Shown: one piece after another, positions 56,201 to 64,000 of the stretch | Layout: every line of letters begins with the position of its first letter | How positions within the stretch are numbered: the stretch's first letter is position 1 | Source of the DNA: a plasmid | Length of the DNA: 64,000 bases | Reading direction: 5' to 3' (one strand) | Assembly: GCF_988243305.1 (NCBI RefSeq) | Contig: NZ_OZ547137.1 | Program-made: the position numbers

Positions 56201-59200
56201 TTCCAGAACCATACGGACTGCCCGTTGACGGACTTCGGGGGAAAAACGAGTATTTTTAGTCATCCTGTTTACCTCTTTCTCAGGAAGTTTAGTCTCCAGG
56301 ATTCCCGGGGCGGTTCACTCAGGTTCTTTTTCACACATCAGACTAATAAATCGGGAAGCATAATTTTCTTCATCCCTGGTTATTCTCCAGGGCATCAACC
56401 AGCGGCTTACCCGGGACACTGAAGGAAGTCTGACGGCAGTAGTAACCGGTGGGTTCCAGCCTTTACGCCATTTGGCAACCGCATCCCTGACGATGGTTTC
56501 ACTGCCTGTAAATCCCCGGGCCACCATTTCCCGCCATATCCGGCTGGCGTTATAATTACCACTTTCTCGTTGCTCTTTTAACCACTCCCTCCATGGGTCC
56601 AGAAGCCCTCGCTTTGGAGGTCGGGTTGACATTTCAGGGAATGTTCCTGAACGCACCCAGCGACTGACTGTCACACGCGACAGGCCTGTAATACGGGATA
56701 TTTCCCTGAAACTACATCCCTTGTTATGCAGGGCCATAACCTCTGTCCAACGCTGATGCCGTTTTTTGCGGGTTTGTTGTTTTAGGCGTTCCGGACGACG
56801 GAGCGATGCTGCAGGCACAGATGGTTCTGGATCAGGTGATTTCTTTGGTGACAACTCACTGGCAACAAGACGTATCAGAGGTATATGTCTGTACATCATT
56901 CGTTCAGGCGCATCGCCAATATTTTTTAGCAGATGCCATCGATCGGCCACCTGTCTGGCCTGAGGTGCACCTTCACGTGCTGCTGTCGCATAGACTCCAC
57001 TGCGATCACGCGAGACAATCTGTATTTCCGGATATTTTCTGAACCAGGTCGCCAGCGTACGCTGATCACGGCCGGGAAGCAGGACGAGGGGACGGTGAGT
57101 ATCAAGATTGACGATTAACGTACCGTAACGGTGGCCCCGATGCCACGCCCACTCATCAATACCGACATGAGGCGCGCCTGACTGTTTCGTCTCCGGGGTA
57201 TTGATAACCCTGCGAAGGAGAGTATCAGCACTGCAACGGAGACCCACTGCCGTTGCTGCCCGTTTCCCGGCCTCACCTCCGGCGATTAATCCCAGTTGAC
57301 GTTGTAAATTTTGTAACGCCTGTGAAGACTGTTGGTGTGAACCGGCGAAGGGAGCAAGCGACTCGGCAAAAATTTTACGTGAACAAGCCGGGTTACGGCA
57401 GTACCAGTGGCGGACGGAAAATACAAGCCATAGCGTATGTCCTGAGCAGGGTGGATGCTGTATCCGGCGCCGACGACAACTATGAACAGAGTCGCTACGC
57501 TTAAAGCATTCAGGACATTGTGCTGTTTTGCGTTTTCCGTGGAGATGGAGGGTTATACCGTCAGAGCTAATAATTTGTCGACTGCATCGCCATCCGCAAG
57601 GTAACTGTAGAAGTGTCTTAAGAGAGTGCATTGAGTTGCCCATGACTTAAAACAGCTTAGATCTTTGTTCACCAGAAAGTTTCATCCATTTTCTTCCACC
57701 CAAGTTGCGGAAGAACCACTTTTCATCCGTCGTTGACATGACGGGTTTGAGTTCCGCTGTGATAACGGAGAAAAACTGCGGGTCACGTTCGCGCTGGACT
57801 GCTGTGACCGTGAGGCACTGCACGGTCACAACGGGTGGCTTCGACAGTGAAACAGTACAGGACGTCATGCTGGGAGCAGTGGAACGCCGCTTTGGCAGCG
57901 AGCTTCCGGCGTCTCCAGTGGAGTGGCTGACGGATAATGGTTCATGCTACCGGGCGAATGAAACACGTCAGTTCGCCAGGATGTTGGGACTTGAACCGAA
58001 GAACACGGCAGTGCGGAGTCCGGAGAGTAACGGAATAGCAGAGAGCTTCGTGAAAACGATAAAGCGTGACTACATAAGTATCATGCCCAAACCAGACGGG
58101 TTAACAGCAGCAAAGAACCTTGCAGAGGCGTTCGAGCATTATAACGAATGGCATCCGCATAGTGCGTTGGGTTATCGCTCGCCACGGGAATATCTGCGGC
58201 AGCGGTCCAGTAATGGGTTAAGTGATAACAGGTGTCTGGAAATATAGGGGCAAATCCAATATCCAAGCCTATCTCTTATTTTAAGATACATCTACTGTCT
58301 GGTATTTCAGGGGGCCAGCTCAGGCGGATTTAATGGCAAAGCCGTGAAGGTAGCAAAAGAAGCCGGATTTCACCTAGCGGTGACGACCATGAAAGGCAAA
58401 GTAAAACCGGGGGATAATCCGTTGTTACTAAAACGACTTTATATCTTAAGAATGGATTCGCTGGAGACGATGTCGCGGCTGGTGAGTAACCAGCCGCAGG
58501 GATCACAATCAGGCAACCTGTACCGGAATCGCTTTCGCGGTACGTTTCATTTCGTTGTCGCCTTCAAAATAGGCGACGTTGGGTCGCCAGGTGCGAGCTT
58601 CTTCATCTGGTATGGTAACGAAGCTGGCGATGATGACAATATCGCCGACGCTGGCGCAGTGGGCCGCCGCACCGTTAACAGAAATAATTCTCGAACCACG
58701 TTCTGCTGCGATTGCATAGGTGGAGAAACGCTTGCCGTTGGTTACATTCCAGATATCAATGGCCTCGTTTTCGAGAATACCGGCTGCGTCAAGAAAATCC
58801 TGGTCAATGGCGCAAGAACCTTCATAGTGCAGGTCCGCATGAGTCACTTTCACGCGGTGGAGTTTGCCCTGCAGCATCGTGCGAATCATAACTTCTACCT
58901 TTCTACCTGTCGTTAACGAAGCAGGCGATGCCTACTTTGAGGAAATTCTCACGCAGTATTGCCCGATTTTTGTTTAGTGTCTACTCATCTGACGGCATTT
59001 GCATCAGCAGTTTGCGTACCGTGCCGAAGCGTGCCATATAACGCCTGTAACCAATTGAAATTTATCTGAACGCTGCTCGGTAAACACTAAAGAGGCGGCT
59101 GACGACGGCACACCATGACTGGATACTGCCTTCACGCAAGACAACACGGAAGGCAGGGAAGATGAATGCACCGAGTACCACACCGCATGATGCGGTGTTT

Positions 59201-62200: not shown

Positions 62201-64000
62201 GCGGTCTACCGTGGTGCCTCGCGTGCGCTCTTGGAAGATCCGCAACCTTGGCGTGAAAAACTGGATCATGGTGTCGATCAGTTTGGTTTACGGCAACTCT
62301 GGTCGAATGTTCCTGCTCCAGCATTGTGCCAGCAGGTAGAACCCCATGCGCCTGAAGCAATAGGTGAACTCATCTGTCGTAATCCAGGCGAAATAACGTT
62401 GGTTGCTACCGGCCCCCTCACCAATGTAGCTATCGCCCTGCAGCTTTACCCGCAGATTGTTCACGCGGTCAAAAATATCGTCGTTATGGGTGGTGTGTTC
62501 AATGTTCCAGGCTACCTGAAAGATACAAATTTTGGTCTAGACCCTGAGGCGGCTCATGCGGTGCTCACCAGCGGTGCGCCAGTCACGCTGGTCCCGATGG
62601 ATGTGACAACGCAAACCCAAATGCTTCACGCCGATTTGGATCGTCTAGCAAAAACAGAAAACGGGCTTAGCCGTTATTTGGCACAAACCATTCGACCATG
62701 GATTACATACTCTATGCAAACCCGCAATCTGCCTGGGTGTTGGATCCACGATGTGTTAACCATTGCCTGGTTACTGGATCCCTCTCTTGCAACAACGGCT
62801 GAAGATTATCTGGATGTCTCTCTGGAAGGTATTACACGCGGAATGACTTGTTGCTATGGACGTGACACATTACGCCTCAATATTGGGATCCCTGAACCAA
62901 AAGGTGCACAGGTCACAATTCTGCAGAGCATCGATAACCCGCGGCTTATTTCGCTGATAGAGCACTATATCCAGAACTACGGCGCGTAGCCTCATGGGGC
63001 AGAAAAGGAGACCTTCGTACACAGTTTGGGGTGATTTTTTTCCGGAGGAAATATGAATACGTTATCCTTCTTATTATTCAGTGAAGAAGAATCTCTCTTT
63101 ATTACACTAGGCAAAATTTGCGTCGCGTTTATCCTTGGTGGCATTATTGGCCTTGAAAGAGAATCGAAAGGGAAGCCTGTTGGATTTAAAACGTGCGTCA
63201 TTATTTCAGTCGCCAGTTGTGTTCTGACAATTGTATCGATTCAGTCTGCAGAATATTACGCTGAAATCTCGATGAATATACGTAGCGATCCGATGCGACT
63301 GGCAGCACAGATTATCAGTGGTGTAGGTTTTCTCGGCGCAGGTGTTATCCTTCATCGCCATGACGATGCTATATCTGGACTAACAACTGCAGCTATCGTT
63401 TGGGCTTCGGCTGGGGTGGGCATTACATGTGGTGCTGGGTTTTATATGCATGCTTTGGTTACCACTGCTTTGTTCATGATTGCAATAAAACTCAGCTATT
63501 TTGTGCTCTTTTTGCAAGCTAAGAATCAATTTCCGGGTAAAGTAAAAGTTCATGTTACTCTTGACGAAAGATCAGGGCTACAAGCCCTGATAGAGTGTAT
63601 TAATCAACAAAAAAATATTATTGAAGCGTTCACTATTCGCGATGTTAAAAAGGGAAGAATAGAAATTAACCTTAAGGTCGTGATTAGAAAAAAAATGATA
63701 TTACCAGAACTATACCATTCACTCTCTAAGCTTGAACATGTTTGCGCTATCGCGCTGGAACACTGAAAGCATCGATTAGAGGCTAAAACAGCAATAAAAA
63801 CATTCACAATAACAATTAGTCAAGTCTGGATATCATATGTTCACAGAGGCAGAAGGCTCTGTGTTAATTGGTACTACAGGAATTAAATAATGGTACCCCC
63901 TACTGTACTAGCTGTCTCTTGATCAGAGCTCCTGATCAAGAGACTTCATCACCAGGTAACCCTCAACCATATCCTGAAGTCTGAACCAGCCATCCCACAT

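Follow-up and report, generated by a model that had tools for sequence, protein, structure and literature searches.

Probable assembly of a plasmid-borne panD segment from two unrelated DNA sources in a pAA-type IncF plasmid of enteroaggregative Escherichia coli

A composite segment and its plasmid

Near the right-hand end of a 64,000-nt stretch of plasmid contig NZ_OZ547137.1 (GCF_988243305.1), hereafter the window, lies a copy of panD, the gene for aspartate 1-decarboxylase. We consider it likely, with a probability of about 0.8, that this gene belongs to insertion sequence (IS)-bounded cargo on an IncF pAA plasmid, and that this cargo combines DNA of two unrelated sources, namely a fragment of the E. 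coli core genome and a cassette of four other genes. The segment is real and recurrent, yet an ordinary product of insertion-sequence shuffling. A preliminary description of this DNA had suggested, as one of two options, that the plasmid captured a chromosomal block, which holds for 957 bp of E. coli core DNA but not for the other 4.6 kb, a separate cassette of other origin. The genes it had named were all recovered in place by open reading frame (ORF) listing and profile searches.

The core piece (window 58323-59279) retains the native order of yadE 3′ end, panD, and rpnC 5′ end, and is 94.6–97.9% identical to a native locus present in 5424 of the 5426 complete E. coli genomes. The four-gene cassette (window 59281-63879) was found in 266 of these 5426 genomes, at 204 chromosomal and 69 plasmid places. 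Comparison with E. coli genomes located the native home of the yadE-panD-rpnC piece and none for the cassette. We rejected a native E. coli locus for the latter, as on each of the two E. coli chromosomes inspected the cassette occupies an accessory, IS-bounded island, with differing positions and neighborhoods and no panD. Beyond E. coli, a scan with one genome per species found the four genes, arranged as in the cassette, in several other Enterobacterales, including the Citrobacter amalonaticus group (88–89.5% nucleotide identity), Raoultella and Enterobacter sp. (~78–81%), and Mixta (76%). Intestinirhabdus yielded only the transporter, regulator, and hydrolase genes (74% nucleotide identity), with no match to the fourth, MgtC-type gene, which likewise was not found in one Raoultella sp. 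locus (L012). The sequences flanking the cassette are homologous across Citrobacter, Raoultella, and Enterobacter sp., and these comparisons indicate that it is a stable chromosomal locus in C. amalonaticus, Raoultella, and Enterobacter.

The joint between the two parts is fully covered in 58 records, i.e., 57 plasmids (122–179 kb) and one chromosome, the plasmid records being complete-genome assemblies from many different strains, laboratories, and countries. Likewise, 25 kb of the window including the segment are 89–98% covered by single places in twelve complete plasmids, and PLSDB holds further E. coli plasmids with the composite as well as one from Salmonella enterica. These observations speak against the earlier proposal of a plasmid-chromosome junction caused by an integrated plasmid or an assembly chimera, since the exact joint recurs across 57 plasmid records with 25 kb collinear. 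A chimera, in which plasmid and chromosomal contigs were misjoined via shared IS copies, would be in line with the repeated IS sequences that flank the segment, which are typical misjoin sites. However, the internal joints (ISEc48 stub to yadE remnant, and rpnC remnant to cassette) are made of unique sequence rather than IS repeats, and they are identical to the nucleotide in dozens of independently assembled complete plasmids, Salmonella included. We consider the chimera effectively refuted, with a negligible residual probability.

A true junction, i.e., an integrated IncF plasmid with panD as the start of chromosomal DNA, is only slightly less improbable than this. One of the 58 joint records is indeed a chromosome (NZ_CP093011.1), and the window's right side beyond position 64000 is out of view. 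Against this, native homology extends over just 957 bp before being halted by an IS end on one side and foreign DNA on the other, whereas a native locus would run into yadE/yadI or rpnC/panC. To the right of the cassette, moreover, the 57 plasmids run into plasmid DNA. The composite in NZ_CP093011.1 (E. coli strain 131) is itself a second copy, at a different place in the record from the native locus, and lies within an integrated IncFII/resistance region. This block (5113651-5154479) carries IncFII repA, pemIK, sul2, strAB, tet(A), mph(A), and sul1, has IS6-family remnants as borders, and adjoins Ag43 and CP4-57-like island genes; overall it resembles a plasmid segment that has integrated. 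A plasmid of this kind may thus enter a chromosome, but there is no sign of this within the window. The Salmonella enterica plasmid (NZ_CP099765.1, 123.5 kb) matches the composite at 99.4% identity across 94% of the query sequence, which implies that E. coli core DNA, panD included, was moved by a plasmid into another genus.

Because of its collinearity with NZ_CP196121.1, whose aggR/aap/aar and IncFII/tra content is known, we assign the window to a pAA-type multi-replicon IncF (RepFIB/IncFII) virulence plasmid of enteroaggregative E. coli. Window positions 22916-52737 and 56314-64000 are collinear with this circular 143-kb plasmid at 99.7–99.97% identity, the match beginning at its own RepFIB gene and maintaining 99.7% identity over a 29.8-kb stretch. 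NZ_CP196121.1 carries aggR, aap, and aar alongside AAF/III genes, and just past the position corresponding to the window's right end it leads via IS remnants to IncFII repA, finO, and tra genes. At the opposite end, aggDCBA (AAF/I fimbriae) and umuDC (window 1-8866) match the pAA plasmid pANT_69R, and the AAF/I genes mark the replicon as an enteroaggregative E. coli pAA plasmid. The backbone is split, with the first 23 kb of the window resembling an AAF/I pAA backbone and the rest best matching an AAF/III-type plasmid; because these parts match different backbones, the window plasmid is a recombinant of known pAA backbones.

The RepFIB gene repB (22916-23893) lies 35.6 kb from panD, in agreement with the ~35 kb initially reported. 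The two were said to be separated by mobile elements only, but annotation transfer from NZ_CP196121.1 places toxin-antitoxin systems and no fewer than five further intact metabolic cargo modules between them, in addition to IS elements. Modules at window ~29291-52401 include an IclR/kdgT/Rid/DHDPS-family set, a sugar ABC transporter with a phosphodiesterase, a GntP permease/pdxA/four-carbon-acid sugar kinase/DeoR set plus KpsF, and a MalY/NhaC pair. The same transfer identified a dead fragment of psiE at ~52265-52401.

Joints, borders, and history of the segment

The core piece opens with a yadE remnant (58323-58505, plus strand) which, by alignment to the native locus, corresponds to the last 61 codons of a polysaccharide deacetylase gene and is annotated in RefSeq as an incomplete pseudogene. 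Its stop codon (58503-58505) is mutated through a private A>C change at 58504, and this stop loss creates a spurious 190-codon ORF (58344-58916) running antisense through panD. panD itself (58509-58889, minus strand) is followed by the whole native panD-rpnC intergenic region (58890-59161), which is collinear with native loci and includes a private 1-bp deletion at 58905. The piece closes with an rpnC remnant (59162-59279, plus strand), i.e., the first 39 codons of a recombination-promoting nuclease gene matching the Transposase_31 and Rpn models. Its PD-(D/E)XK nuclease domain is incomplete, covering only model positions 1-38 of 203, and resemblance to native rpnC breaks off at codon 39-40. 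What had been described as a 47-codon Rpn-like remnant is an ORF (59162-59305) that does match Rpn models, although only its first 39 codons are rpnC and the last eight are foreign. Native pan loci have the order yadE(+), panD(−), rpnC(+), panC(−), panB(−), and by this comparison the rpnC remnant is a dead fragment of panD's native neighbor. We rejected the idea that it represents a mobile-element relic or a recombinase that made the joint, since it corresponds to the 5′ end of rpnC and the joint has no feature attributable to Rpn activity. The distance of the core piece from native loci lies within the variation that E. coli shows at this locus, two native loci differing from one another by 3.65%.

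At the joint between core piece and cassette (59280-59281), a four-way sequence comparison indicated that native rpnC homology ends at ...GAACTGTGTG, inside codon 40, followed by one filler G and then by cassette DNA, without microhomology. Chromosomal island copies of the cassette reach ~30 bp further left than the plasmid cassette does. We interpret this joint as the product of illegitimate recombination.

On the left, the core piece breaks off at a 63-bp stub of an ISEc48-like (IS3-family) element (58260-58322, plus strand; outer end ...GGGGGCCAGCTCA), which lies 183 bp past the panD stop codon. An identical 64-bp sequence terminates a complete ISEc48 that sits within cvaB on plasmid NZ_CP151046.1. 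Adjoining the stub is an IS2-type (IS3 family) remnant (57739-58259, plus strand) consisting of the 3′ part of orfB with rve and rve_3 domains, annotated as an incomplete integrase-core pseudogene in NZ_CP196121.1. It ends at base 58259 with a terminal inverted repeat, ...TAGGGGCAAATCCA, which we take to be that of IS2. The gene remnant preceding panD had been called IS2-truncated; the remnant exists, as the yadE 3′ end, but it was cut by the ISEc48-like end, and IS2 adjoins only that stub. Further left is an ISEc38 (ISL3 family) element, represented by the N-terminal part of its transposase and the element end (56315-57738, minus strand; DDE_Tnp_ISL3 and Zn_ribbon_ISL3, named as in RefSeq for the collinear plasmid). 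A 3.6-kb insert absent from NZ_CP196121.1 splits its transposase gene at 52738-56313; within this insert are an ORF (53343-54866, minus strand; RVT_1 and GIIM domains) for a group II intron reverse transcriptase/maturase and IS3-type orfA/orfB fragments (55458-56263, minus strand).

On the right, the cassette ends in a tail (63767-63879) whose homology to one E. coli island copy (L005) stops at 63879 in a local BLAST comparison, followed by an IS4-family transposase remnant (63923-64000, minus strand) identified from the RefSeq annotations of NZ_CP196121.1 and NZ_CP033850.1, inside which the window ends. The cassette/IS4 joint also occurs in chromosomal island copies, and homology to another of these (L004) runs on to 64000. 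A composite transposon was considered and rejected, as the flanking IS are of different families and all truncated (ISEc48-like stub, IS2 remnant, and ISEc38 on the left, IS4-family on the right).

Sister plasmids offer a view of how the segment may have formed. A second composite variant has the identical joint between rpnC remnant and cassette and retains an additional 59 bp of yadE. Further to its left lie panC and panB, both intact and 95.5% identical to native panBC, with their orientation flipped compared with the native arrangement (NZ_CP093011.1, locus L007 17431-19088). Overall, panBC occurs on 21 PLSDB plasmids (e.g., NZ_CP086619.1); panB is truncated by an IS in pS65EC (NZ_CP036244.1, locus L034 1608-3088), and the window lacks panBC entirely. 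Sister plasmids with the same joint together with panC and a whole or truncated panB indicate that some E. coli plasmids hold the full panB-panC-panD set. Between panC and the yadE remnant, the sister variant also contains a ~150-bp "hypothetical protein" remnant (L007 19233-19388) that is found again at window 6425-6566 and on >1000 enterobacterial plasmids, and which is probably a piece of a widespread IS or plasmid backbone.

Since both variants end rpnC at the same nucleotide, core piece and cassette were fused once. The scenario we propose starts with the capture of a larger pan region by a plasmid, possibly in an F-prime-like manner (integration followed by aberrant excision) or through IS activity, the original capture end-points having been overwritten by later IS events. 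The fusion of the cassette into rpnC, by a single illegitimate recombination in codon 40, would come next, before different IS truncated the left side with breakpoints that vary among plasmid lineages. The window lineage may have lost panBC through an IS-adjacent deletion, and its panD seems to be the only pan gene left from a larger region that was captured and then pared down by IS.

Possible upkeep of panD and gene content of the cassette

The plasmid panD encodes an intact protein of 126 amino acids that scores 224.9 bits against the TIGR00223 equivalog model (cut-off 106) and 157 bits against PF02261 (Asp_decarbox). It aligns over all 126 residues with the crystallized E. coli proenzyme (1PPY), with M93I as the sole difference, and retains the self-processing site Gly24-Ser25 (...HYEG-SCAID...) from which the pyruvoyl group is generated. 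M93I is likewise all that separates it from the common E. coli protein. Relative to the best native copy, the gene has six synonymous changes and one non-synonymous change. Because strain S65EC carries both a native chromosomal panD locus and the plasmid copy, the latter can be considered a redundant duplicate, and a probably functional one. It is also probably expressed, since the entire native upstream region is kept, and its promoter presumably lies within 58890-59161. Maturation of PanD requires the chromosomal activator PanZ/PanM. Once transcribed, the plasmid copy would be expected to yield a proenzyme matured by the host's PanZ/PanM and to supply extra beta-alanine for pantothenate and coenzyme A (CoA) synthesis, which would be redundant under most conditions.

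Substitution patterns provide some indication of constraint. Between the two plasmid variants, the panD piece differs at 2.19% of sites compared to 0.51% in the adjoining cassette (p = 6e-6), and of the 23 variant sites, 19 carry an allele confined to one plasmid variant and missing from 13 native loci, with the other four shared with chromosomal polymorphism. Private changes of the plasmid copies number 3 in the 381 bp of panD vs. 16 in 576 bp of flanks and intergenic sequence (Fisher p = 0.03), and the cassette genes show 15 synonymous vs. 6 non-synonymous differences between plasmid lineages. Although the counts are very small, they suggest drift in the remnants of yadE and rpnC and maintenance of panD and the cassette genes.

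The alternative that panD is inert debris, an unselected and possibly unexpressed passenger beside a selected cassette in a segment otherwise structured as described, is a possibility we take seriously, if with the odds leaning against it. The host keeps its own panD, both neighbors of the plasmid gene are dead fragments, panB and panC have been lost or truncated in several lineages, and the constraint signal of 3 vs. 16 changes (p = 0.03) is weak. Yet all of the listed records with annotation show an intact ORF. Its product differs from the crystallized enzyme by one conservative substitution, and the gene has accumulated fewer changes than its flanks and retains its complete upstream region. 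At the other extreme, IncF virulence and resistance plasmids might carry extra pantothenate genes that are selectively maintained and would raise beta-alanine and CoA supply with a gain in host fitness in the gut or urinary tract. We regard this as unlikely; if true, a core vitamin pathway would have become transferable plasmid cargo that has already arrived in Salmonella.

The excess of substitutions in the panD piece over the cassette could also be taken as a trace of repeated gene conversion with resident chromosomal pan loci, the 957 bp then serving as a portable homology patch for Hfr-like integration. RecA-dependent exchange is possible with ~1 kb at 95–98% identity, which counts in favor of this reading. 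Nevertheless, we rejected gene conversion as the cause of the divergence because most of these alleles, 19 of 23, are unique to plasmid copies and only four are shared with chromosomes, and because the rates fit neutral flanks next to constrained genes, i.e., drift in the dead flanks vs. purifying selection on the cassette genes is enough to explain the excess. In addition, the highest chromosomal identity among the 5426 genomes is 97.9%, and the single integrated copy (NZ_CP093011.1) is not at the pan locus, which leaves the reading as a whole quite improbable.

Downstream of the joint, the cassette starts with a leader or regulatory region (59281-59463, plus strand), delimited by alignment with chromosomal island copies. 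Most copies contain two ATCTAC-N4-GTAGAT palindromes upstream of the transporter gene, which are possible candidates for LacI-type operators. The window lacks the second of these through a 27-bp deletion at ~59417-59425 between 8-bp direct repeats (ATATCTAC), a deletion common to only 2 of the 58 joint-bearing records. All four genes lie on the plus strand. The first (59464-60858) encodes a 464-residue major facilitator superfamily (MFS) transporter of the metabolite/H+ symporter type, which exceeds the gathering scores of MFS_1 and Sugar_tr and matches TIGR00883 over the full profile at 389.7 bits, under the subfamily cut-off of 443.45. The second (60964-61995) encodes a LacI-family regulator of 343 residues, above gathering scores for PF00356 (LacI helix-turn-helix), PF13377, and PF00532 (Peripla_BP), and reaching none of the equivalog cut-offs.

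The third gene (61970-62989) encodes a 339-residue nucleoside hydrolase (IU_nuc_hydro, PF01156; 235.6 bits against a gathering score of 34.2, profile positions 1-295 of 297) that falls below the equivalog cut-offs for RihA (162 vs. 433 bits), RihC (157 vs. 382), and UriH (138 vs. 450). All four aspartates of the N-terminal Ca2+-binding motif DXDXXXDD are present but split by a seven-residue insertion (DCDPG-NGIPGAN-IDD). This NGIPGAN insertion (window 62021-62041, residues ~18-24) is absent from solved homologs and from a Bacillota homolog, and conserved in all Enterobacterales orthologs checked (Citrobacter, Raoultella, Enterobacter, Mixta, Intestinirhabdus, and Tenebrionibacter). The fourth gene (63053-63766) encodes a 237-residue MgtC/SapB membrane protein with an ACT-like C-terminal part (PF02308, 122.9 bits against a gathering score of 31.4; ACT_4 weak), also below NCBIfam equivalog cut-offs. 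Judged by these family assignments, the cassette has the parts list of a nucleoside-utilization locus, i.e., transporter, LacI-type repressor, and IU-type hydrolase. The MFS symporter would probably import a ribonucleoside-like compound for the hydrolase to split, with the repressor acting at the palindromes 5′ of the transporter gene.

Several points weigh against the account given here. Each public record covers only a part of the 64 kb, whose first 23 kb match a different pAA backbone, and the plasmid's own continuation past the IS4 remnant is out of view. A scan for sigma-70 promoters and terminators returned matches no more numerous than in shuffled sequence, which is uninformative as to panD expression; the selection tests rest on very small counts; and the retention of panD could be simple hitch-hiking beside a selected cassette. 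The order of events, in particular whether the window lineage lost panBC or never had it, was inferred from two variants rather than from a plasmid phylogeny. Finally, the hydrolase has the motif insertion and reaches no equivalog cut-off, which makes any substrate assignment tentative.

Significance and relation to known systems

The position of panD beside RepFIB is a recurrent, stable feature of the pAA/IncF plasmid family, and provides a small, datable case of core-genome DNA on a conjugative plasmid that has reached Salmonella. The series of plasmids can be read as a stepwise erosion of a captured pan region by IS. In practice, pan genes on plasmids, panD here and panBC as well in relatives, can mislead core-gene typing, the estimation of copy numbers, and the binning of contigs into plasmid and chromosome, while the biological weight of these genes is modest unless the extra pantothenate genes affect fitness. 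Searches of the accessible literature returned no description of panD, panBCD, or pantothenate genes on IncF or pAA plasmids, although plasmid pan genes are routinely annotated in dozens of public records.

F-type plasmids that have picked up chromosomal genes (F-primes) are textbook knowledge, as are IncF plasmids with metabolic cargo bounded by IS. As in F-primes, an F-type replicon (RepFIB in the window, IncFII repA/tra in the collinear plasmids) is linked to core DNA of the host species in native order, and the host is merodiploid, as shown for strain S65EC. Here, however, only 957 bp survive (~2.9 kb in two rearranged pieces in the sister plasmids), and the borders are IS ends and an illegitimate joint that place the capture route beyond reconstruction. 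The segment also resembles IS-bounded IncF cargo in being a mosaic of intact operons between whole and truncated IS, with at least five other modules on the same plasmid, and differs in that it includes a core-genome fragment of its own species rather than accessory genes alone.

Housekeeping pantothenate genes have a plasmid precedent in Rhizobium etli and R. leguminosarum, where, according to that study, plasmid-borne panC-panB is essential for pantothenate biosynthesis (PMC3082293). In the pAA plasmids, by contrast, panD duplicates a chromosomal gene present in 5424 of 5426 genomes.

For the cassette, the closest parallel in organization is the uri locus of Corynebacterium glutamicum (UriR, UriT, and UriH), which likewise clusters a LacI-family regulator, a transporter, and an IU-type hydrolase, and whose UriR and UriH models match the window proteins significantly but below threshold (158 vs. 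550 bits and 138 vs. 450 bits against the equivalog cut-offs). Unlike the uri locus, the cassette has no ribokinase gene, includes an MgtC/SapB gene, and encodes a hydrolase with a seven-residue motif insertion. This hydrolase shares the PF01156 fold family with E. coli RihA, RihB, and RihC, with RihA and RihB among its closest solved structures, but it is set apart from all three by scores under every equivalog cut-off, by a different gene context, and by its conserved motif insertion.

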